Translations under genes and position numbers: made by a program | In this document: one piece after another, positions 30,945-52,247 of the stretch | Numbering within the stretch: position 1 is the first letter of the stretch | Layout: each line of letters begins with the position of its first letter | The notes under the pieces: generated by a model | What the model was told of the DNA's origin: nothing | The model's input: the letters and a program-made list of their open reading frames with translations, nothing else | The model's database searches: none | Assembly (NCBI GenBank): GCA_938038735.1 | Contig: CALHSW010000074.1 | Span: forward strand, 16,302-80,301 | Length of the DNA stretch: 64,000 nucleotides | Source of the DNA: an uncultured Bacteroidia bacterium | Lineage (GTDB): Bacteria; Bacteroidota; Bacteroidia; Bacteroidales; CAJPTX01 | Direction of reading: 5' to 3'

Positions 30945-31254
30945 GAAATTTATTTTGATTTCCCGTGCGGTAAGAACGTCATGCGGGGAAACTGATTTGC
31001 ATCGCCCTCTTCGCCTTTTTTAACGGTGCATGCGCCCCACGTATGGCTGCCCATCTCCTCCACAACCTACATCCCCTCCCCTCGTCAGCATAGATTTTCG
31101 CCGCAATGCAGCCCTATCCGCAGAACGGTCTCCAATAGGACGAACCCGCATGACCCTTCGCCACAGCCTGCACACTATGCCTTTTCTAAATCCGGATGAA
31201 CCCGCACAAATTCTCCCATAAAATCCACATAAATTTTTGCAAACCGATGTAGCC

Positions 31255-31341
31255 CCGTCCGCAGGACGGTCTCTCAATAGCCGGGGGGGGTCAAACCCCG
31301 GATTCTCGCCTAAAAGGCGAGACAGTCTGAAAGACTGACCC
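31255..31341 (+). repeat. Four-hairpin ~88-nt repeat element, copy A1
   Basis: CCGTCCGCAGGACGG..AATAGCCGGGGGGGGTCAAACCCCGG..CGCCTAAAAGGCG..CAGTCTGAAAGACTGACCC. Confidence 0.8.
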
Positions 31342-31437
31342 GCATGACCCTAACCGCCTTCAATGGCATTGGAAACTAGGCGCGGGCAATCTCCAATTCC
31401 CCACAGTCTCGCACAGATTCTCACCGCCCATGCAGCT

Positions 31438-31526
31438 CCGTCCGCAGGACGGTCTCTCAATAGCCGGGGGTTTTCAAACCCTCGGTTCCTTGCCCACAAG
31501 GGCAAGCCTGTCTGAAAGACTGACCC
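31438..31526 (+). repeat. Four-hairpin repeat element, copy A2
   Basis: Same module order as A1 (CCGTCCGCAGGACGG / CCGGGGGTTTTCAAACCCTCGG / TTGCCCACAAGGGCAA / GTCTGAAAGAC). Confidence 0.8.
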
Positions 31527-31764
31527 GCATGACCTCGCACCATTGATGCCTCCGCAAGACCAATCATCCCAGCCGCAATAACTTGCACGCCCCGCCCGCA
31601 TAGATTTTCGCCGCAATGCAGCCCTATCCGCAGAACGGTCTCCAATAGGACGAACCCGCATGACCCTTCGCCACAGCCTGCACACTATGCCTTTTCTAAA
31701 TCCGGATGAACCCGCACAAATTCTCCCATAAAATCCGCATAAATTTTTGCAAACCGATGCAGCC

Positions 31765-31851
31765 CCGTCCGTAGGACGGTCTTTGAATAGCCGGGGGGGG
31801 GCAAACCCCGGATTCTTGCCTGAAAGGCAAGCCAGTCTGAAAGACTGACCC
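31765..31851 (+). repeat. Four-hairpin repeat element, copy A3
   Basis: CCGTCCGTAGGACGG...CAGTCTGAAAGACTGACCC, part of the second 510-bp unit. Confidence 0.8.
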
Positions 31852-31891
31852 GCATGACCTTAACCTCCTCCAATCCCCACGCAGAACGCAC

Positions 31892-31942: not shown

Positions 31943-33661
31943 TCATTTCACCACGCGCAGCGTCCGCTCTCCATCGCTCGCCACCACCCGCACCACGTAC
32001 ACCCCGCTCGCCCAGCCCTGCGCATCGATCGCTACCCTCGGCTCTCCGCGCAGCGTCTCGGCATGCACCCGCGCGCCAACCACGCTGTACACCTCCACCC
32101 GCGCCGCGCGCTCCATCCCCTCCAGCTCCAGCGCCTCGCCTACGGGATTCCTCACCACCCGCACCCCAGCCAGCTGCACGCTCTCCACCGCCGTCTTGGG
32201 ATCCTTCGGGGTGCTGGGAGTGCTTTCCTCATTCTTCTTCCACACCGCCACCAGCGTGATGTCCTCCGTTACCTTCGTGTTGATGAAATCGTATTTCTCT
32301 TTCTCGCCCTTAAGCTGCCACCTCACGAAGGTGTAGCCCTTCTTGGTTGGCGCTGTCGGCTCGATCGCCGTACCGTTAGGCTTCACCAGCTGCTCCCCTA
32401 GCGTATGCCCCTTCCCATCCTGAAAGGTCACCTCGAAGCCCTCCTCAATCTTAGAAACCACTTCCCACCACTTTTTCCCATTCACCCTAATAGCCGACCT
32501 CTCATCCTGCCGCACGTATAGCGTTGCTGAGGAGGCAATCCCAAGAAATGCATCATCGCCTACGTTGCAATCTGCATCCGCGAGCCAGTAGATCGCCTTG
32601 AGCCGTCTGCAATTTTGGAAGGCCATCTCCGCTATCTCTGTCACGCTGCTGGGAATGGTCACCTCCGTCAGCCCTCTGCATTCATAAAATGCTGCCCACT
32701 CTATTGCTGTCACGCTGCTGGGGATGGTCACCTTCGTCAGCCCGCTGCAACCATAAAATGCTCCCCACACTATTGCTGTCACGCTGCCCGGGATGGTCAC
32801 CTCCGTTAGACTACTGCAATTTTCAAAAGCCCGCCCCCCTATTTTCGTCACGCTGCCCGGAATGGTCACCGCCGTCAAACCGCTGCAGCCATAAAATGCA
32901 CCAGCCTTAATTCCCTTCACGCTGCTAGGGATCTTGTAGTCTCCCGTCCGCTTCCCCGGGTAGCTCACAAGCGTATCCATATCCTTCCTGAAGAGTACAC
33001 CGCCAACTTGGCTGTAACTCGCATTTTTCTCCTCCACTTTGAATTCCGTCAGCTTTTTGCACTCAGAAAATGCAAAATCCCCTATCTCCCTTACGCTGCT
33101 GGATATGGACACCTCTTTCAGCCTGTCGCAATCTTGAAATGCCCCATTCCCTATCGTCTGCACGCCGCTAGGGAACTTCACCTCTGTCAGGTTATTGCAA
33201 TTGTTAAATGCACTTCCCCCTATCCTGGTCAATCCGTTAGGGAAATCCACCGCCTTCAGGTGGCAGTTCAAAAATGCACTTTCTCCTATCGTTGTCAATC
33301 CGGTAGAAAACTTCACCTTCTTCAGTCCAAAGCAACTTCTAAATGCACTTTTCCCTATCGCTTTCACGCTGTTCGGGATGTCCACGGCCTCTAGCGCGCT
33401 GCAACCATCAAATGCCTCCTGCGCTATCTCCACCACCGTTAAGTCCTTGACATCATCGGGAATATCCACCTTGGTGCCAATTGCATTTTTATCCTTTGGC
33501 TTAATCCTGCACGTTTTGTCTGCCTCTATCTCCTCGTACTCCCACGTCACGCCGTTCTTATCTGTGTAGTCATTCCATTGCGCTCCCCGCACAATCCCCA
33601 CGCCCGCCGCCGCAACCAGCAGCACCATCAAACCCAATCGTAATATGCCTCTCATTTTCAT
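31943..33661 (-). CDS. BspA-type leucine-rich-repeat surface protein with Listeria-Bacteroides repeat domain and T9SS C-terminal sorting domain
   Basis: Signal peptide (…VGIVRGA|QW), about 14 LRR_5-type repeats (IPxSVxxIGxxAFxxCxxLxxV), FEVTFQDG..GYTFVRW...ITLVAVW (Flg_new-like), and the C-terminal VVRNPVGEALELEG....VEVYSVVGARV......GVYVVRVV..DGERTLRVVK (Por/T9SS CTD). Confidence 0.85.
   Translation of the reverse strand: MKMRGILRLGLMVLLVAAAGVGIVRGAQWNDYTDKNGVTWEYEEIEADKTCRIKPKDKNAIGTKVDIPDDVKDLTVVEIAQEAFDGCSALEAVDIPNSVKAIGKSAFRSCFGLKKVKFSTGLTTIGESAFLNCHLKAVDFPNGLTRIGGSAFNNCNNLTEVKFPSGVQTIGNGAFQDCDRLKEVSISSSVREIGDFAFSECKKLTEFKVEEKNASYSQVGGVLFRKDMDTLVSYPGKRTGDYKIPSSVKGIKAGAFYGCSGLTAVTIPGSVTKIGGRAFENCSSLTEVTIPGSVTAIVWGAFYGCSGLTKVTIPSSVTAIEWAAFYECRGLTEVTIPSSVTEIAEMAFQNCRRLKAIYWLADADCNVGDDAFLGIASSATLYVRQDERSAIRVNGKKWWEVVSKIEEGFEVTFQDGKGHTLGEQLVKPNGTAIEPTAPTKKGYTFVRWQLKGEKEKYDFINTKVTEDITLVAVWKKNEESTPSTPKDPKTAVESVQLAGVRVVRNPVGEALELEGMERAARVEVYSVVGARVHAETLRGEPRVAIDAQGWASGVYVVRVVASDGERTLRVVK
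32639..32984. repeat. Five tandem 69-bp units inside LRR gene 1
   Basis: (G/T)TCACGCTGC recurs at 32639, 32708, 32777, 32846 and 32915, with an exact 69-nt (23-aa) period. Units 1 and 2 differ at about 7 of 69 positions by hand alignment. Confidence 0.85.
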
Positions 33662-34084: not shown

Positions 34085-34309
34085 ATGAAAGCTCAACCAA
34101 TCAGCGCCCTGAACGGCGTAATGCTCATTGCGCTATTCTCTTTTTCTGCCTACTACATTGCAAGCTACCCGCTCTTTAAGCACCTCTCGTTCAGCCCAAT
34201 GATTATAGGTATTCTGCTCGGCATGCTCTACGCCAACACCCTACGCCTGCACCACAGCGAGGAAGAGGTAGCCGCAACCCCGAAAATTGGCAAGGATCCG
34301 AGGGGCTAA
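34085..34309 (+). pseudogene. 5' remnant of a YeiH/UPF0324-family membrane transporter gene, truncated
   Basis: MKAQPISALNGVMLIALFSFSAYYIASYPLFKHLSFSPMIIGILLGMLYANTL resembles the first ~55 aa of YeiH-family proteins (normally ~330 aa). The reading frame then runs into repeat-element sequence and stops. Confidence 0.55.
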
Positions 34310-34475
34310 AGCCCCCCGGCTATTGGGAGCCCGTCCTGCAGAAAGGAGCTTCGTGGTAGTGCGAATATAGATGCCTTTTATAATGCATAGGGCTATGCGG
34401 GTTCAGGGGGGTATTGCGGGCTGATTATGGCGAAGGGTCACGCAGGTCAGTCTGAGAGACTAATCCGCACCGCCA
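34280..34475 (-). repeat. Degenerate, reverse-oriented fragments of the same repeat family
   Basis: GGCAAGGATCCGAGGGGCTAAAGCCCCCCGGCTATTGGGAGCCCGTCC aligns with GGCGAGGATCCGGGGGTTTGAAGACCCCCGGCTATTGAGAGACCGTCC at 39348-39385. GGTCACGCAGGTCAGTCTGAGAGACT aligns with GGTCATGCGGGTCAGTCTTTCAGACT at 39298. Confidence 0.7.
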
Positions 34476-34558
34476 TTCCGCACCGCCCCTAACGTCCAAC
34501 TCGCACGGTAGCAACGATGGCTAAACGCGACGGAAGTAAGCACTATCCACTTTTTTTG

Positions 34559-34617: not shown

Positions 34618-35511
34618 ATGGAAAAGAGGCAATTGAAGGGGCTCGGCGTAGCACTGGTCACGCCGATGAAGGCGAATGGCGGCGTGGATAGCGAGGCCGC
34701 GAAGCGGGTGGTACGCTACGTTTTGGACAATGGGGCTGATTTTCTAGTGGCGCTCGGCACCACGGGCGAAGCCCCTACGCTCAATGCGCAGGAACAGAAT
34801 GAATTTGTGCGTCTCGTGGTTGGCACGGCGGCGGGCAGAGTCCCCATCGTGGTGGGCATGAGCGGCAATGATACGCGTACGCTCGTGGAGCGGCTCGAGG
34901 CGATGGATTGCACCGGCGTGGATTACATCCTCAGCGCGGTGCCAAGCTACAATAAGCCATCGCAGCAGGGCATTATTGAGCACTTCCGCCGCGTGGCAGC
35001 CGTAGCGCAGCGGCCCGTGGTGCTCTACAATGTGCCGGGGCGTACCGGGCGCAACATGACGGCACAAACCACCCTATGGCTCGCGGAGAATATTGACAAC
35101 CTCGCGGGCGTGAAGGAGGCGAGCGGCGACCTCGCGCAGGTGGAGGAAATTTTGGCTAAGCGGCCGGAAGGATTCGCCGTGCTCTCGGGCGATGATGCGC
35201 TTACGCTGCCCATGATGGCGGCGGGGGCAGAGGGGGTGATCTCGGTGATAGGGAATGCGCTGCCAAAGCGCTTCGGCAGCATGGTTCACGCCGCGCAGCG
35301 GGGCGATTTTGCCGAGGCGAAACGGGAACACCTATCGCTGCTCGAGATGTACAAGCTTCTCTTTGCTGAGAACAACCCCGCGGGCATTAAGGCGGCGCTG
35401 GCTGCCATAGGGCTGTGCGGAAACAACCTACGCCTGCCGCTTGTGCCGGTGAGCGCGGCGCTCTACCAGCGCATTGAGGCGCAGATGAAGGTGCTACAGC
35501 CTAAGGCGTAG
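34618..35511 (+). CDS. dapA: 4-hydroxy-tetrahydrodipicolinate synthase
   Basis: GLGVALVTPM, ALGTTGEAPTL, YNVPGRTG, GVKEASGD (catalytic Lys context). Confidence 0.92.
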   Translation: MEKRQLKGLGVALVTPMKANGGVDSEAAKRVVRYVLDNGADFLVALGTTGEAPTLNAQEQNEFVRLVVGTAAGRVPIVVGMSGNDTRTLVERLEAMDCTGVDYILSAVPSYNKPSQQGIIEHFRRVAAVAQRPVVLYNVPGRTGRNMTAQTTLWLAENIDNLAGVKEASGDLAQVEEILAKRPEGFAVLSGDDALTLPMMAAGAEGVISVIGNALPKRFGSMVHAAQRGDFAEAKREHLSLLEMYKLLFAENNPAGIKAALAAIGLCGNNLRLPLVPVSAALYQRIEAQMKVLQPKA

Positions 35512-36465: not shown

Positions 36466-39114
36466 TTGACAAAGAGACTAAAGAGAGCGGCTCGTGTAGC
36501 GGTTTACATTTTGGGGGGGCTTGCATTGTTAGCGGCACTCTTGGTGACGGCAGCCGTCGTTTTTGAGAAAAAATGGGGCAACGCCGTGGTGCAGCAGAGC
36601 ATCAAGGTGCTCAATGCGCACCTACAGGTGCCCGTAACCATCAGTAGCGCCGAGTTTACCTTCTTCGATAATTTTCCCCATGCGAGCATCCACCTGCGAG
36701 ATGTGGTGGTGCGTTCAGCCCACCCGAAGACGTTCGGCAACGATACGCTGCTCATTGCTCATAGCGTCTTCCTTGTTATTAATCCATTGAAGCTGATTCG
36801 TGGGGATTATACAATAAGCGCATGCCACGTGGAGCAGGGATACCTCTCGCTGCGTACCTCTAGCCAAGGGAAGAGCAACTACGACATTTTCAAGCCCGCC
36901 GCAGCGGACGACACTGTTGCCTCCCCGCTGCGGCTCAACGTGAATCGTTTTCAGCTTTCGCAGATGGCCTGCTCGTACGGTAGCGAAAAGGCGCAGCTCA
37001 CCGTTGACCTCTTCATCGCGGAGCTCACCGCGAGTCTTCGGATCGATGGCAATCGCCAACGGCTATCGCTTGCCACCGAAGGGCTCGTAAACATGCTGAA
37101 ACAGAGAGAATTCACCTACGCCCAACGGCAACGTTTCGCTTTAGCGGGCAATGTGCTACGCGATAGCACCCGCTATGAACTCCAAAAGGGCAATTTATCA
37201 ATTGACCATAGTCGCCTAGCCATTAGCAGTTTATACGACACGAAGAGCATGGAGTTTTCGCTGCATGCGAAAAGCACCACGCTGAACCTCGCGTCGGTCC
37301 TTGCCTTCGCCTCACAGTATAAGTGGAACGTGCCGCCGCAGCTGCGCATTCGGGGGACTTTGAACGCATCGGTAGACGTAGAGGGGTCGTTAAAGGGGAA
37401 TAATGGACTCAGCATTCGGCTCAAGGCCGATGGCAAAGATCTCCCCTGCGTGTACAATGACAACAAGTTTACAATCAACCGAATAATTGCCGATTTTAGT
37501 AATGGGGAGAAAAGAAATCAAAGTACCTCATCGCTGAACATCGTGGCATGCGATCTCTCTAGCAACCGCTCCACAGCGCACACGCAGCTGTGCGTAACCA
37601 ATCTGCAACGACCATCAATATACGCAAAGTGGGATGTGAAGCTTTCTGACTCAGAATTCTTGCCCAGCTCATGGAGTAAATACGAACCACGCTACACCTC
37701 GCTGCGGACGGCCGGGGAGTACGTAGCCACATTCCCTGCACTCGATAGCATATCGCTAGCGAAGGCGATTCTCCCCAAGATGCGCATGGAGGCCGATATG
37801 GAGAAGGTGGAGGTGCGGCTCTCCCCATCCATAAAACTCACCGAAATGGAAGCGGCCCTTACCGTGGTGGACTACGATGTCACCAAGGGTATGCTGCGCG
37901 CCAAGGTGGAAGGGCAACCCTTGGAAATCGCTTTTAGCGCATCCGACTTCCTGAGGTCGGGCGTGGGGCGCACGCGCTGGACCGTCAACGCCTCGCTCGA
38001 TAATTTTGATTTCGATAGGGTGCCGTTCGGCGCCATCGCGGGCAGCGATAGCAGCAGCACAGCCAAGAATGGTGCGAGCCTATGGAACTACGCGAGGAGC
38101 ATCGATGGGGGGATCGCCATCCGTGATTCGCAATGGAAAAAGGCGCAACTCGACTCGGTGAGTATGCGGTTCTCGGCGCGCGCCGGGAATTTCAGCGGTT
38201 GGATTAACAGCGCTTCGTTCCTCGGCGGCTCTACCCGCGGCCTCGTAACGCTCTCGCAACAGGCTGATAGCACGCTGCTCCTCTCCGCCGACCTTTACGA
38301 ACGGCAGCTCGATCTGCCACAGCTCTTTAAGAGCTTTGATAATTTTAATCAGAACACCCTACGTAGCGAGAACCTTGAGGGCAAGCTCTCTGGAAAATTC
38401 AACCTTCAGATACCCTTCCATGGTGGCGCGTTCAATATGTCAGACGTGCAGGCGCAGGCAGACGTTGCGATTACCAGCGGAGCCTTGATAAACGTGCAAC
38501 CGTTAACCTACCTCTCCAAGTTCATTTCGCTCGATGAGCTTATGAATCTCCGTTTCGCAACGTTGTACAATACCATCTCCATCCGTAATGGGCGGGTATC
38601 AATACCAGCCATGCAGGTCAATTCGTCCGCGCTGAGCCTTACGGCCTCTGGGGAACACCATTTCAACGGGAGATACATCTACCGGGTAAAGGTGGGGCTG
38701 GGCGATATCCTCTTCAATAGGGTGCGGGCTAGGAAGCGAAACCTAGAGGAAAATGCCATTGCGGCTGATGACGAAAGCTCAAAGATGTGGCTGTTTTTGC
38801 TGATTGAGGGAGACGCTTCAAGTGCCTACGTGCGCTACGATACGGAGGCGCTCGGCGGCTACATTCAGGAGCGGGTAGACGTGGAGAAGGCCTCGCTGCG
38901 GGATGCCTGGAATGAGGCGCACGGCCTCCCCCGTGACGACTCGGCGCGTTTAGTAAAGGCAAGAAAGCAGAAGAGTACGCCCATTCTATGGCAGGATGAC
39001 CCCAGCGCACCGCCCCCGCCCACGCTTGACACCGCAAAAGCACCCATGAAGCCCAAAACGCCTCCATCACAGCCCCTTCCGCCGGTGATATGGGATGAGA
39101 GAGGGGCTGAGTAG
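36466..39114 (+). CDS. AsmA-family protein
   Basis: N-terminal TM anchor then ...NAHLQVPVTISSAEFTFFDNFPHASIHLRDVVV (AsmA N-terminal pattern), 882 aa, with a C-terminal AsmA_2-like region. TTG start, uncertain. Confidence 0.65.
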   Translation: MTKRLKRAARVAVYILGGLALLAALLVTAAVVFEKKWGNAVVQQSIKVLNAHLQVPVTISSAEFTFFDNFPHASIHLRDVVVRSAHPKTFGNDTLLIAHSVFLVINPLKLIRGDYTISACHVEQGYLSLRTSSQGKSNYDIFKPAAADDTVASPLRLNVNRFQLSQMACSYGSEKAQLTVDLFIAELTASLRIDGNRQRLSLATEGLVNMLKQREFTYAQRQRFALAGNVLRDSTRYELQKGNLSIDHSRLAISSLYDTKSMEFSLHAKSTTLNLASVLAFASQYKWNVPPQLRIRGTLNASVDVEGSLKGNNGLSIRLKADGKDLPCVYNDNKFTINRIIADFSNGEKRNQSTSSLNIVACDLSSNRSTAHTQLCVTNLQRPSIYAKWDVKLSDSEFLPSSWSKYEPRYTSLRTAGEYVATFPALDSISLAKAILPKMRMEADMEKVEVRLSPSIKLTEMEAALTVVDYDVTKGMLRAKVEGQPLEIAFSASDFLRSGVGRTRWTVNASLDNFDFDRVPFGAIAGSDSSSTAKNGASLWNYARSIDGGIAIRDSQWKKAQLDSVSMRFSARAGNFSGWINSASFLGGSTRGLVTLSQQADSTLLLSADLYERQLDLPQLFKSFDNFNQNTLRSENLEGKLSGKFNLQIPFHGGAFNMSDVQAQADVAITSGALINVQPLTYLSKFISLDELMNLRFATLYNTISIRNGRVSIPAMQVNSSALSLTASGEHHFNGRYIYRVKVGLGDILFNRVRARKRNLEENAIAADDESSKMWLFLLIEGDASSAYVRYDTEALGGYIQERVDVEKASLRDAWNEAHGLPRDDSARLVKARKQKSTPILWQDDPSAPPPPTLDTAKAPMKPKTPPSQPLPPVIWDERGAE

Positions 39115-39305
39115 CTATCATATCTTGCCCTTGGGCAAGGTTACCGGGGTTTTATCCCTACCGACTATTGGGAGACCGTCCTTCGGACAGGGCTGCATGG
39201 GCGGCGAAATCTTATGCAGGGTGGCAGGTTACGGCGGGGCCATGCTGGTCGTGAGGGGATGATTCTATGTGCCGTTCATGCCGTTGAACGCGGTAAGGGT
39301 CATGC

Positions 39306-39393
39306 GGGTCAGTCTTTCAGACTGTCTCGCCTTTTAGGCGAGGATCCGGGGGTTTGAAGACCCCCGGCTATTGAGAGACCGTCCTTCGGACGG
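39306..39393 (-). repeat. Four-hairpin repeat element, reverse-oriented copy C1
   Basis: GGGTCAGTCTTTCAGACTG...CGCCTTTTAGGCG...CCGGGGGTTTGAAGACCCCCGG..CCGTCCTTCGGACGG is the reverse complement of the module order of copy A1. Confidence 0.8.
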
Positions 39394-39735
39394 GCTGCAT
39401 CGGTCTGCAAAAATTTATGAGGGTTTCATAGGAAAACCTGTATGGGTTCGTGTGGAACTACGAAAGGCATAGTGTGCAGGTTATGACGAAGGGTCGTGCG
39501 ATTCCATCCGATTGAGAGACCGTTCTTCGGACAGGGCTGCATTGCGGCGAAAATTTATGCGGGTGGAAGGGATGCATGCAGGTTACGGCGTGAGCTTGGT
39601 TGCCTATGGCTGCTGCGAAACAATGCGCAAGACCGTACCGCAGCGGGTTGCGAAATGTGGGGGCGGTCATCTGCAGTGGCCCTCGCTATTGAAAGCGCAG
39701 ATATTGAGAAGGGTGCGGCGCAGCCGCTGCGCTTT

Positions 39736-39824
39736 CCGTCCGTAGGACGGTCTTTGAATAGCCGGGGGTTTTCAAACCCCCAGTACTCTGCCCACAGGGC
39801 AAAAGCAGTCTGAAAGACTGACCC
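39736..39824 (+). repeat. Four-hairpin repeat element, copy C3
   Basis: CCGTCC-GTA-GGACGG; GGGGGTTT-TC-AAACCCCC; TGCCC-ACA-GGGCA; CAGTCT-GAA-AGACTG. Confidence 0.85.
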
Positions 39825-40074
39825 TGGCGCCCCATTGTATGCGCAAATTCAACGTTGGAATTAACGCGGAAGGGCTGCAGAGCGGTGAAAATCTATGCAG
39901 GATGGGGGCATCGCATGCAGATTGCGTTGGGAGCTTGGTTACCATAGCTGCTGCAAAATAATGCGCAAGGCCATGCCGCGGCAGGTTGCGAAATGTGGGA
40001 GGCGGTCATCTGCAGTTGCCCGCGCCATCGGAAACGCAGATATTGAAAAGGGTGCGGCGCAGCCGCTGCGCCTT

Positions 40075-40163
40075 CCGTCCGTAGGACGGTCTTTGAATAG
40101 CCGGGGGTTTTCAAGCCCCCGGTACTCTGCCCACAGGGCAAAAGCAGTCTGAAAGACTGACCC
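40075..40163 (+). repeat. Four-hairpin repeat element, copy C4
   Basis: Near-identical to C3, 339 nt downstream. Confidence 0.85.
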
Positions 40164-40456
40164 TGGCGACCCATTATAAGCGCAAATTCGATGTGAGAAT
40201 TAACACGCAAGGGCTGCGCGGGTAAGCCAGATTGAGAGACCGTCCTACGGACGGGGCTGCACTGCGGCGAAAATTTATGCGGGCGGGAGGGATGCATGCA
40301 GGTTACGGCGTGAGCTTGGTTGCCTATGGCTGCTGCGAAACAATGCGCAAGACCGTACCGCTGCATGTTGCGAAATGTGGGAGGCGGTCATCTGCAGTTG
40401 CCCGTGCCATTGAAAGCGCAGATATTGAAAAGGGTGCGGCGCAGCCGCTGCGCTTT

Positions 40457-40545
40457 CCGTCCGCAGGACGGTCTTTGAATAGCCGGGGGTTTTCAAACCC
40501 CCGGTACTCTGCCCGCAGGGCAAAAGCAGTCTGAAAGACTGACCC
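40457..40545 (+). repeat. Four-hairpin repeat element, copy C6
   Basis: Near-identical to C3 and C4, 382 nt downstream of C4. Confidence 0.85.
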
Positions 40546-40694
40546 TGGCGACCTATTCCACACGAAAATTCAATGTGGGATTTCACATGGGCGGGCTGCG
40601 AGGGTAAGCCCGATTGAGAGACCGAGACTGCGGATATGGCTGCAGTATGGCGTGAGATCGCCCCCGGGGGACGCCCTAGAGTAAGGGGAGAGGG

Positions 40695-42428
40695 CTAGCA
40701 TTGGGCATTTGAAGGAGGAACGGAATCCGTTTGGGGTGCGGCCGCTAGCTCCTTGATGGTTGAGAATGGCGCCCACCATTGGCTCTCATTGTTCCGAAGG
40801 CTTTTTACTTCACCTTGCGGCACGTAGAGCGTAGCAGAGCTAGCAATTCCGATAAAGGCACTGTCGCTTACCTCCATTGTGCCGGTGTTCTGTAGGCAGT
40901 ATACCCCATTCAGCTTGCCGCAATGGCTAAAGGCATCCTCGCCTATGCTGGCAGTGCCTAGCGGGATGGTTATTTTTTCCAGGGAGGGGCAGCCGTAAAA
41001 TGCGCCATCACAGATGGTTTTGATGCTGTTTGGAAGTCTGACTGATTGAAGGGAGAGGCAGCCGTTAAATGCGGTTTCACCGATGGTTTGGACTCCATTG
41101 GGAATGGTTATGTCGGTTAGCTTGGCACCGCAAAACGCATAGTCTCCGATGGCCAGTACAGAGTTAGGAATCTTACAGGGTCCAATTCTTCCCCCTGGGT
41201 AGCTTATCAGCGTTTCGCCGTTTTTGGTGTAGAGTAAACCGTCAGTAGCTTGGTAGTTCCCATTGTCAGGGGACACCCCAAAGCTTTCCAGCGATTGGCA
41301 GTTGAGGAATGCGCCGGGCGGCACGTTGGTAACGCTTGAAGTTATATGGATCGCGGTTAGCCGGCTGCAGTAGGCAAAGGCGTAGTACCCAATTTCCTGC
41401 ACTCCTTGGGGAATTGCATAGACCCCAACCTTGCCGTTGGGGCAGGAGACGAGGGATTGCATGCCCCTGCTGAAAAGCACCCCATCTGCCGTGCAGTAGT
41501 ATTCATTACCCTCCGCCACCTCAAATCGCTGTAGCCTAGAGCATGCATTGAATGCGCTGATGCCGATGGATGCCGTACCGTTGGGGATGGCGATGGAGCT
41601 TAATGCTTGGCAGCCGAAAAATGCGTGGTCCCCGATGGTCGTTAGGCTGGGCGGGAGGGCGATAGAGACGAGGGCGCTACAGCCATAGAATGCGCCGTAA
41701 TCAATGGCGGTGACGCTGCTGGGGATGCGCACCGTGATGAGCTTGTGGCAGTTGTAAAAGGTGCCGCATTGGATGATGGTGATCCCATGGGGTAGGGATA
41801 TTGATTGGAGCTGGCTACAGTCGCTAAAGGCGTAGTTCCCAATGGTTTCCACGCTGTCGGGCAGGGTAAGGGTTTGGAGATTGCGGCAGTTGTAAAATGC
41901 ACCCTCCCCAATGGAAATTAGATTTTCGGGGAGGGTTAGAGCGGTTAGCTCGTCGCAATCTGCGAATGCGTAGTCCCCAATTGCAATCACCCCAGATGGC
42001 ATCTCGTACGTTTCGCCTTTGCGAGGAGGGTGGCGAAGGATGGTCCTTTTATCTCGGCTAAAGAGCGTTCCCGCCACAGCGCAGAGCACTTCGTTGTCGT
42101 CATCCACTTCAATCCCCTGTAGCGCGGTGCATCCGCTGAATGCGCATATTCCAATAGCCGCGACGTGCGCGGGGATGCGAATGGCGGTGATCTCCGTGCA
42201 ATCGGTGAAAGCGTAGTCGGCAATCGCCACAACCCTAAGGGGGGCGCCACTCGGGGTGGGGATTGTATTGGGGATGGCTACAGAGCCGCTAATAGCCTTG
42301 CCGTTCGGTTTGATTATGCACGCATTCTCCGTTTCGGCATATTGGAATAGCCATTCAATGCCATTGTCAACGTAGCTTACCCAGTCGTAGTTGATGTCTT
42401 CGCTGTTTAGAATCATAGCCGTTGCCAT
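40695..42428 (-). CDS. BspA-type leucine-rich-repeat protein lacking a signal peptide and T9SS CTD (paralog of 31943-33661)
   Basis: About 17 LRR_5-type repeats (IPNSVLAIGDYAFCGAKLTDITIPNGVQTIGETAFNGCLSLQSV...). The N-terminus MATAMILNSEDINYDW is not hydrophobic. An in-frame TAA lies two codons upstream of the ATG. The protein ends 20 aa after the shared ATLYV...WW motif. Confidence 0.8.
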   Translation of the reverse strand: MATAMILNSEDINYDWVSYVDNGIEWLFQYAETENACIIKPNGKAISGSVAIPNTIPTPSGAPLRVVAIADYAFTDCTEITAIRIPAHVAAIGICAFSGCTALQGIEVDDDNEVLCAVAGTLFSRDKRTILRHPPRKGETYEMPSGVIAIGDYAFADCDELTALTLPENLISIGEGAFYNCRNLQTLTLPDSVETIGNYAFSDCSQLQSISLPHGITIIQCGTFYNCHKLITVRIPSSVTAIDYGAFYGCSALVSIALPPSLTTIGDHAFFGCQALSSIAIPNGTASIGISAFNACSRLQRFEVAEGNEYYCTADGVLFSRGMQSLVSCPNGKVGVYAIPQGVQEIGYYAFAYCSRLTAIHITSSVTNVPPGAFLNCQSLESFGVSPDNGNYQATDGLLYTKNGETLISYPGGRIGPCKIPNSVLAIGDYAFCGAKLTDITIPNGVQTIGETAFNGCLSLQSVRLPNSIKTICDGAFYGCPSLEKITIPLGTASIGEDAFSHCGKLNGVYCLQNTGTMEVSDSAFIGIASSATLYVPQGEVKSLRNNESQWWAPFSTIKELAAAPQTDSVPPSNAQC

Positions 42429-52015: not shown

Positions 52016-52089
52016 GGCCTCGTAGCTTAACTGAATAGAGCATCTGACTTCGGATCAGAAGGTTGTGGGTTTGAATCCCGCCGGGGTCA
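52016..52089 (+). tRNA. tRNA-Arg (anticodon TCG)
   Basis: Hand-folded cloverleaf with acceptor GGCCTCG/CGGGGTC, anticodon stem TCTGA/TCAGA, loop CT-TCG-GA and T-arm GTGGG-TTTGAAT-CCCGC. 74 nt, no encoded CCA. Confidence 0.85.
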
Positions 52090-52173: not shown

Positions 52174-52247
52174 GGCTCCGTAGCTTAACTGAATAGAGCA
52201 TCTGACTACGGATCAGAAGGTTGTGGGTTTGAATCCCGCCGGAGTCA
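52174..52247 (+). tRNA. tRNA-Arg (anticodon ACG)
   Basis: Same body as the upstream tRNA, with acceptor GGCTCCG/CGGAGTC (compensatory change) and anticodon loop CT-ACG-GA. 74 nt. Confidence 0.85.

Follow-up and report, generated by a model that had tools for sequence, protein, structure and literature searches.

Repeat copies in the 64-kb window

The window, by which we mean the whole 64,000-nt stretch that was analysed, corresponds to C74:16302-80301 in a small gut Bacteroidales genome (G000; assembly of 2.46 Mb in 76 contigs, 54.4 % G+C) and carries full and partial copies of a repeat built from four consecutive hairpins (hp1 to hp4). Such a repeat had been claimed in an earlier note and it proved to be real: the sequences quoted for 39736-39824 read as given there, and the example used to illustrate variation in the third hairpin (CGCCTAAAAGGCG versus TGCCCACAGGGCA) is correct. 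The claimed length of ~88 nt was, however, too short, as the conserved unit spans ~105 nt, with conservation beginning ~10 nt before the claimed start, at (A)TGCAGCC, and running ~8 nt past the claimed end, to ACCCGCGTGACC.

A covariance model (R1), built solely from copies of the source genome and run unfiltered across the whole window, recovered all seven of the full copies that had been claimed, with E-values of 1e-31 to 1e-37. The copy at 39722..39835(+), within which the originally described stretch 39736-39824 lies, belongs to subfamily b (101.6 bits, E = 5.7e-31); it begins with GCCGCTGCGCTTTCC... and ends with ...ACCCTGGCG, and comprises hp1 (CCGTCC-GTA-GGACGG), the linker TCTTTGAATAG, hp2 (CCGGGGGTTT-TC-AAACCCCC(A)G), hp3 (TGCCC-ACA-GGGCA) and hp4 (CAGTCT-GAA-AGACTG). 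Further full copies of subfamily b are present at 40061..40174(+) (104.9 bits) and 40443..40556(+) (106.4 bits), and a copy of subfamily a (ATGCAGCC...ACCCGCATGACC) at 39295..39405(-) (122.6 bits, E = 1e-37) is inverted with respect to the other full copies of the same spacer. The remaining full copies, all of subfamily a, are located at 31242..31352(+), 31425..31537(+) and 31752..31862(+), with R1 scores of 110.5, 119.3 and 111.6 bits, respectively.

Truncated or degenerate copies had also been reported, and R1 detected those near 31105, 31620, 34290, 39123, 39510 and 40230; the one near 34440 gave a weak match, and the one near 40612 was recognizable by eye only. A degenerate hp1 module (TGCAGCCCTATCCGCAGAACGGTCTCCAATAGG) at 31101..31158(+) (20.1 bits, E = 8.5e-5) lies within a 285-nt duplicated block (family D3), the second copy of which carries the same module at 31611..31668(+) (20.1 bits). 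A partial copy consisting of hp1, linker and hp2 is found at 34283..34359(-) (39 bits; nhmmer model positions 11-70), followed by a weak fragment of the hp4 end (GGTCACGCAGGTCAGTCTGAGAGACTAATCC) at 34433..34470(-) (R1 span 34409-34477, E = 0.19-0.4). Directly 3' of the stop codon of an 882-aa ORF (36466-39114) there is a degenerate copy at 39098..39203(-) (47 bits), and a partial copy at 39433..39547(-) (25.9 bits; nhmmer model positions 2-42) has its hp1 module at 39504-39544. Single hp1 modules occur at 40209..40267(-) (GATTGAGAGACCGTCCTACGGACGGGGCTGCA; 34.7 bits) and, in a very degenerate form that falls under the model thresholds, at 40605..40650(-) (gattgagagaccgagactgcggatatggctgcag).

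The full copies at 39400-40700 are embedded in 340-380-nt tandem-like units (families D1 and D5), which form a BIME-like mosaic; besides the full copies they contain ~150 nt of further repeated sequence, a hairpin GCGGC-GCA-GCCGC and an hp1 module in inverted orientation. At 34085-34309(+) a 74-aa ORF matches the YeiH family (PF03601) only at profile positions 2-52 of 304 and runs into the partial element at 34283; this ORF is a truncated gene remnant bordering the repeat patch. A gene split by the repeat at 34.1-34.6 kb was considered and rejected, because the next gene (34618-35511) encodes DapA and not the rest of the YeiH-family fragment. Two other repetitive features of the window were noted: within a 572-aa ORF at 31943-33661(-), a period of 69 nt (23 codons) recurs in six copies (60-81 % identity) at 32601-33257 (family D2), giving its protein tandem 23-residue repeats, and two tRNA genes at 52016-52089 and 52174-52247 are 95 % identical and 158 nt apart.

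Architecture and structural conservation of the unit

The unit is a series of four different hairpins whose order and direction are fixed: a 5' tail, (A)TGCAGCC, is followed by hp1, a linker, hp2, hp3, hp4 and the tail ACCCGCGTGACC. The consensus of hp1 is CCGTCC-GYA-GGACGG; the linker between hp1 and hp2 reads TCTYTSAATAG, hp2 is CCGGGGGTTT..AAACCCCCGG and hp4 is CAGTCT-GAA-AGACTG, while hp3, which occupies the ~21-nt spacer between hp2 and hp4, varies in sequence but keeps its pairing. The conserved unpaired motif is the ...AATAG between hp1 and hp2, and the unit has no terminal GTAG or CGTC tag. Two subfamilies differ in their termini, with subfamily a running ATGCAGCC...TCTCTCAAT...ACCCGCGTGACC and subfamily b running GCCGCTGCGYTTTCC...TCTTTGAAT...ACCCTGGCGRC.

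Several identities for the unit were tried and rejected. A classical (DDE) MITE does not fit, as the terminus (A)TGCAGCC... does not recur in inverted form at the other end, ...CGCGTGACC. A reading of hp1 and hp4 as matched ends has weak support: the two stems of one element match each other weakly (p = 0.04). A DNA uptake sequence was considered because the sequence of hp4 resembles the uptake-sequence dialects of Neisseriaceae, but the copies number ~90-130, no k-mer occurs in the thousands and the host belongs to the Bacteroidales.

An alignment of 50 diverse copies showed that 93.6 % of cells were paired in the four-hairpin structure, compared with 26-52 % when the partners were slid by 1-3 columns. 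Both sides had changed in 39 cells versus 15.6 expected from shuffles, a number equalled by 0 of 500 shuffles. These compensatory changes were located mainly in hp2 and hp3 (e.g. U-A 25 : C-G 16 at one hp2 pair), and hp1 and hp4 were conserved in sequence. The suggestion made in the earlier note that selection acts on structure is thus supported by both the retained pairing and the covariation, and a lack of covariation, which the note had named as evidence to the contrary, was not observed, with the double changes exceeding those in all 500 shuffles.

Conservation of four hairpins with compensatory changes is also what favours a reading of the unit as a structured small RNA family, an ncRNA of the Acido-Lenti-1 type whose hairpins are selected as RNA, and the related Rfam family RF01687 (see below) is indeed catalogued as an sRNA. 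We regard this reading as very unlikely. A stem selected as an RNA of one strand is expected to tolerate G:U and to avoid A:C, whereas the stem mismatches over all full copies comprised 112 G:T and 112 A:C, so that neither strand is favoured. This balance speaks for a palindrome working at the DNA level on either strand, and points to the element being a DNA palindrome rather than an RNA read from one strand. A small RNA is further disfavoured by the presence of copies that point either way with respect to neighbouring genes (38 antisense and 19 sense to the upstream gene, a mild skew) and by the alignment of copies, in which no conserved promoter region was seen 5' of the unit. Moreover, many copies are truncated at one fixed point or lie in tandem or inverted clusters, copy number varies between near-identical populations and, as described below, inverted pairs bracket a transposase gene.

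Genome-wide census and placement

An iterated nhmmer profile produced 198 matches on 50 of the 76 contigs, ~119 of which were near full length and the remainder mostly 5' fragments; hit lengths sum to ~17 kb of DNA, and no other k-mers in the genome are as frequent as those of the element (90-134 copies). Such a recurrence greatly exceeds what chance would produce. Two outcomes that the earlier note had set as grounds for abandoning the element, an absence of further copies in the genome and an origin of all copies in one local segmental duplication, are both at odds with this distribution. Of the 198 copies, 76 are no more than 600 nt away from the end of a contig; the repeats thus break the assembly, and their real number is higher.

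Placement was assessed against gene calls from a simple codon-usage caller (1705 genes, 82 % coding). Nearly all copies (193/198) were intergenic and many were embedded in larger repeat mosaics. Occupied spacers made up 11.6 % of those between convergent genes (17/147), 2.8 % of co-directional spacers (32/1130) and 2.2 % of divergent spacers (3/139), and 52 of 147 contig-edge regions were occupied. Occupancy of convergent spacers at four to five times the level of the other classes, together with the several copies that begin 0-30 nt from a stop codon, would agree with a unit that is mainly a transcription terminator or a 3'-end mRNA stabiliser under selection. The terminator option, which had been among the proposals of the earlier note, is contradicted by the absence of T-tails: no T-run follows the hairpins of the unit in either orientation, and a terminator scan gave 4 sites against 11.4 expected, none of them on a full copy. 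In addition, orientation is not fixed, 11 of 13 congeners carry no copies of the element, and enrichment at 3' ends would be generated equally by purifying selection against insertions into promoters. A terminator or stabiliser is therefore very unlikely to be the main role of the unit.

Some neighbours of the element are themselves repeated. Proteins of 538-562 aa with AAA-ATPase_like (PF09820) and PDDEXK_9 (PF08011) domains form a multi-copy family, which has a member just upstream of the window, at C74:12039-13724, and others in more than 20 other places. In about nine of these genes the stop codon is followed by a four-hairpin element at a distance of no more than 120 nt; four have an identical 26-nt 3' UTR leading up to the element, and the rest lose their similarity at the stop codon. 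This multi-copy gene was rejected as a candidate transposase on the basis of its domains. Several isolated copies of the element (e.g. C29:29300-29470 and C18:1700-1880) adjoin genes with N-termini like those of DNA cytosine methyltransferases (…FAGVGGF…, …FAGIGGFH…), and their flanks lack conservation among congeners; the element seems to prefer variable regions. A second, unrelated repeat is also abundant in this genome, namely a near-perfect palindrome of ~80 nt (CACCAAATTCGCACCCCCTTCGCATCAAATTCGGATTTCTCC|GGAGAAATCCGAATTTGATGCGAAGGGGGTGCGAATTTGGTG; core AATTCGGATTTCTCCGGAGAAATCCGAATT) with 42 exact-core copies, 41 of them intergenic, and k-mers present ~88 times, which looks like a REPIN- or MITE-like long hairpin.

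A single Y1 transposase gene lies between inverted copies

The earlier note had proposed a search for a RAYT or transposase with matching termini, and this search was decisive. Exactly one gene with the Pfam domain Y1_Tnp (PF01797) is present in the genome, outside the window at C46:7301-7744(-), where it encodes a protein of 148 aa and is bracketed by inverted copies of the element. One copy, at C46:7195-7296(+), directly adjoins the stop codon of the gene, and the other, at 8037-7976(-) on its 5' side, lies 232 nt away from the start codon and is interrupted where the contig ends; hp4 faces the gene on both sides. Three more copies occur within 1 kb of the gene. The bracket in this genome is a single locus.

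The Y1 protein contains the motifs DHVH and YVKRQKEHH, and the residues H53, H55, Y113, Q117, H120 and H121 are invariant in eight homologues. It fails the NCBIfam model for RAYTs (NF047646; 25.2 bits versus a cut-off of 80), passes the model for IS200 (NF033573; 64.9 versus a cut-off of 55), and is thus formally an IS200-type transposase; the protein also matches the TnpA structures of ISDra2 and IS608 (PDB 2fyx, 2xm3 and 2a6m). No TnpB partner was found in the genome. A classification of TnpA-Y1 proteins by Quentin, Siguier, Chandler and Fichant (2018; PMC6006769) defined a subclass 1.2 with a median length of 148 aa, the motifs DH[IV]H and Y---Q--HH, a low copy number and hosts among the Cyanobacteria and Bacteroidetes, and listed this subclass as 'REP: no' and 'does not share IS properties'. 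Judged by motifs and length, and not by a tree, the protein from G000 is assigned to subclass 1.2; the gene is present in one copy, and paralogues in relatives share 26-46 % identity with the G000 protein.

The bracket recurs in relatives and includes Rfam family RF01687

A search of 41 related genomes found no Y1 orthologue within the genus, and the best relatives, at 38-46 % identity, came from six other Bacteroidales families, all with the subclass motifs. At those loci the Y1 gene again lies between inverted modules with the hp4 side towards the gene. The module of these relatives consists of hp1, a 13-15-nt linker ending in ATA(A/G)CC, hp2, a ~21-nt spacer and hp4, and its layout is constant while stem sequences vary between genomes; in G000, the 21-nt spacer has turned into hp3. 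The R1 model detects these modules even though it derives from G000 copies alone. Scanning genomes of named species yielded 80 further Y1 loci, nearly all from Bacteroidota. Significant inverted similarity between the two flanks was present at 48 of 76 loci, compared with 3 of 427 (0.7 %) ordinary small genes of G000 that served as a control, and a strict hairpin-linker-hairpin detector found modules pointing towards the gene on 43 of 157 flanks and away from it on 8 of 157.

Comparison with Rfam, also suggested in the earlier note, gave no named family for the element: the window yielded two tRNAs alone at the gathering threshold. A link to Rfam came instead from the relatives, and its first sign was a set of sub-threshold matches to RF01687 on the flanking modules of two Y1 loci. 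This family is the Acido-Lenti-1 RNA motif from Weinberg et al. 2010 (PMC2864571). The motif covers two of the hairpins, being composed of an 8-bp hairpin joined through a 13-nt linker (CUAauuUAUgcC) to one of 5 bp, and alignment shows it to be the reverse complement of the hp1-linker-hp2 portion of the module class. Matches above the gathering score (37 bits) were found on both sides of the Y1 gene in two genomes (G021 and G028) and on one side in two others (G037 and G039), the Y1 genes of all four being of subclass 1.2; in G037, G028 and G039 the same elements were matched by R1 and RF01687. Among 41 genomes, 12 contained both RF01687 and a Y1 gene, 2 contained RF01687 alone, 8 contained Y1 alone and 19 contained neither, which amounts to a significant co-occurrence per genome (odds ratio 14.25, p = 9e-4). 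Our literature search found no paper tying RF01687 to Y1 enzymes.

The source genome itself gave 0 RF01687 matches at E<=0.01, and positions 39650-39900 of the window gave no match to this family at E<=10 and nothing relevant in Rfam on the element. Its copies differ from RF01687 in being GC-rich and in having a 10-bp hp2 and an extra internal hairpin, and they are a GC-rich four-hairpin variant of the RF01687-related module class. Two congeners (G005 and G006) had 2 and 5 RF01687 matches above or near the gathering score with no subclass-1.2 Y1 gene found; these could be relic repeats, or the genes could be missing from incomplete MAGs.

Amplification and change between populations

Copies in G000 have a median pairwise identity of 0.79 and a median nearest-neighbour identity of 0.94. 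Among 13 congeners, G012 alone contains copies, three strong and one weak, at least two of which have orthologues among the copies on contig C40 of G000; the amplification is thus species-specific. Scanning of metagenomes located the element in the source assembly of G000 and in an independent assembly, QWCB01, which is ~95.5 % identical to G000 over 263 kb. Orthologous spacers of these two populations differed in copy number, with 3 copies in G000 versus 1 in QWCB01 on C63, 4 versus 2 on C74 and 2 versus 8 on C37. The QWCB01 loci that were compared did not include the Y1 gene. Near 113 kb on C34, G000 has 393 extra nt relative to QWCB01 and both junctions fall directly after ...CAATAG. Approximately 25 truncated copies genome-wide end after CAATAG(CC), at model positions 35-45. 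The concentration of truncations at one point and the indel on C34 together imply that hp1 with its ...AATAG tail behaves as a unit, the boundary of which is a recurrent breakpoint.

Clean insertions into unique sequence, and with them empty or target sites, were sought in congeners, in paralogue flanks and in the QWCB01 comparison, and none was found. A composite query of ten joined flanks gave no alignment across a junction in congeners, where the flanks were not conserved; the 3' flanks of the AAA-ATPase paralogues provided no clean pair; and the exact flanking protein DapA (34618-35508), when used as a probe for other assemblies, returned no record.

These observations bear on whether the copies are relics that spread passively by recombination, slippage or segmental duplication, the link to Y1 being historical or the gene an unrelated domesticated one. 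Consistent with passive spread, both outer flanks are repeated sequence in 56 of 106 full copies, every strain-level indel examined, including those other than C34, is bounded by repeated hp1 modules, the window has 285-380-nt blocks in a tandem-like arrangement, ~9 copies accompany the 3' ends of the AAA-ATPase/PDDEXK gene family, and elements persist in G012, which has no Y1 gene. Because outer flanks are unique on both sides for 17 of the 106 full copies, cluster-wise duplication must explain much of the amplification, and much of it could reflect recombination or duplication and not enzyme-driven movement. However, these at least 17 copies, with a further 33 that have a unique flank on one side, come from a population spread over 50 contigs, and 23 copies have a nearest neighbour of >=97 % identity. 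The 50-fold difference between G000 and G012 tracks the presence of the Y1 gene, and the bracket has been kept around Y1 homologues across the phylum while the stems changed, a pattern that needs continued co-evolution. We therefore consider it unlikely that the copies are relics whose connection with Y1 is only historical.

Discussion

The repeat described here is probably a REP/BIME-like non-autonomous DNA element belonging to the single IS200-like Y1 (HUH) transposase of the genome. Of the options that the earlier note had left open, the REP-like one is supported, a classical MITE does not fit and a structured RNA is disfavoured. The system is most likely a REP/RAYT-like one in which the enzyme subclass is new and the repeat has several hairpins; we infer that the enzyme mobilises the repeat.

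Precedents from IS200/IS605 and TnpA-REP proteins make it most likely that the Y1 protein would bind and cut the hairpins; the position of the cut is likewise a prediction. Single-stranded DNA would allow the small, sequence-conserved hairpins hp1 and hp4 to fold and to be bound by a Y1 dimer, which may then cut and rejoin DNA beside hp1/hp4 and so move or copy the unit in trans. The best candidate for the cut or joining point is the conserved ...AATAG|CC where the linker meets hp2. Copies would survive only in harmless spacers, mostly at the 3' ends of genes, where they may also multiply as clusters through recombination between neighbouring modules.

Beyond this genome we lean towards a wider proposition: that subclass 1.2 runs its own REP-like system across the Bacteroidota and beyond, that its directional multi-hairpin substrate is in part what is known as Acido-Lenti-1, that the ~200 copies of G000 represent a recent, species-specific burst from one enzyme and that AATAG|CC is the cut site. 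In REP/RAYT systems, the textbook example of transposase domestication, the enzyme maintains a repeat population within its genome; to our knowledge, these systems have been found almost only in Proteobacteria and with class-2 enzymes. Our interpretation would extend the REP/RAYT principle to an enzyme subclass that has been listed as lacking repeats and to one of the dominant phyla of the gut, the Bacteroidota. It also offers a likely explanation for an abundant Rfam family without an assigned function that is now annotated as ncRNA, for example in Tannerella. G000 constitutes a natural test case, with one enzyme gene and ~200 copies where the sister species has 3-4 and other congeners have none. 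A practical consequence is that these repeats disrupt short-read assemblies, as reflected in the proximity of many copies to contig ends.

Among known systems, IS200/IS605 elements and their gene-less derivatives (PATEs) share with the system described here a Y1 HUH enzyme of the same fold. Small subterminal hairpins are the likely recognition elements in both, and hp1 and hp4 are similar and on one strand, in the manner of miniature left and right ends. IS200/IS605-type enzymes act on the template of the lagging strand. Whereas in IS200/IS605 elements a left and a right end of one strand enclose the gene and the whole element occurs as several near-identical copies, the Y1 gene of G000 is single copy and lies between whole inverted units; there is, moreover, no TnpB, and hp1 and hp4 match weakly. 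RF01687 resembles our element in having two hairpins joined by a ~13-nt linker and in flanking Y1 genes. The enzyme itself conforms to TnpA-Y1 subclass 1.2 (PMC6006769) in its length of 148 aa, the DH[IV]H and YVKRQKEHH motifs, a low copy number and a Bacteroidetes host. The published classification lists no REP partner for this subclass, whereas inverted multi-hairpin modules bracket both the G000 gene and 48 of 76 homologous loci.

The closest functional counterparts are the REPtrons of E. coli, Pseudomonas and Stenotrophomonas, in which REP/BIME or REPIN repeats are combined with a single-copy RAYT/TnpA-REP gene (PMC3116915, PMC8266576, PMC5581495). As in REPtrons, the repeats are short, extragenic and palindromic, number ~100-200 copies, form clusters and mosaics in spacers and prefer the 3' ends of genes; a single-copy Y1 HUH gene lies between inverted copies of the repeat, and repeat and enzyme co-vary between genomes. 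REPtrons, however, are a feature of Proteobacteria and this host belongs to the Bacteroidota. Their enzymes are of class 2 (Y---NP) whereas that of G000 belongs, by its motifs, to class 1, subclass 1.2 (Y---Q--HH), and their repeat is one hairpin with a GTAG or CGTC tag, or a REPIN doublet of two inverted REPs, in contrast to a directional unit of four hairpins. The system thus works like a REP/BIME population with its RAYT, but departs from it in two defining features, the class of the enzyme and the design of the repeat.
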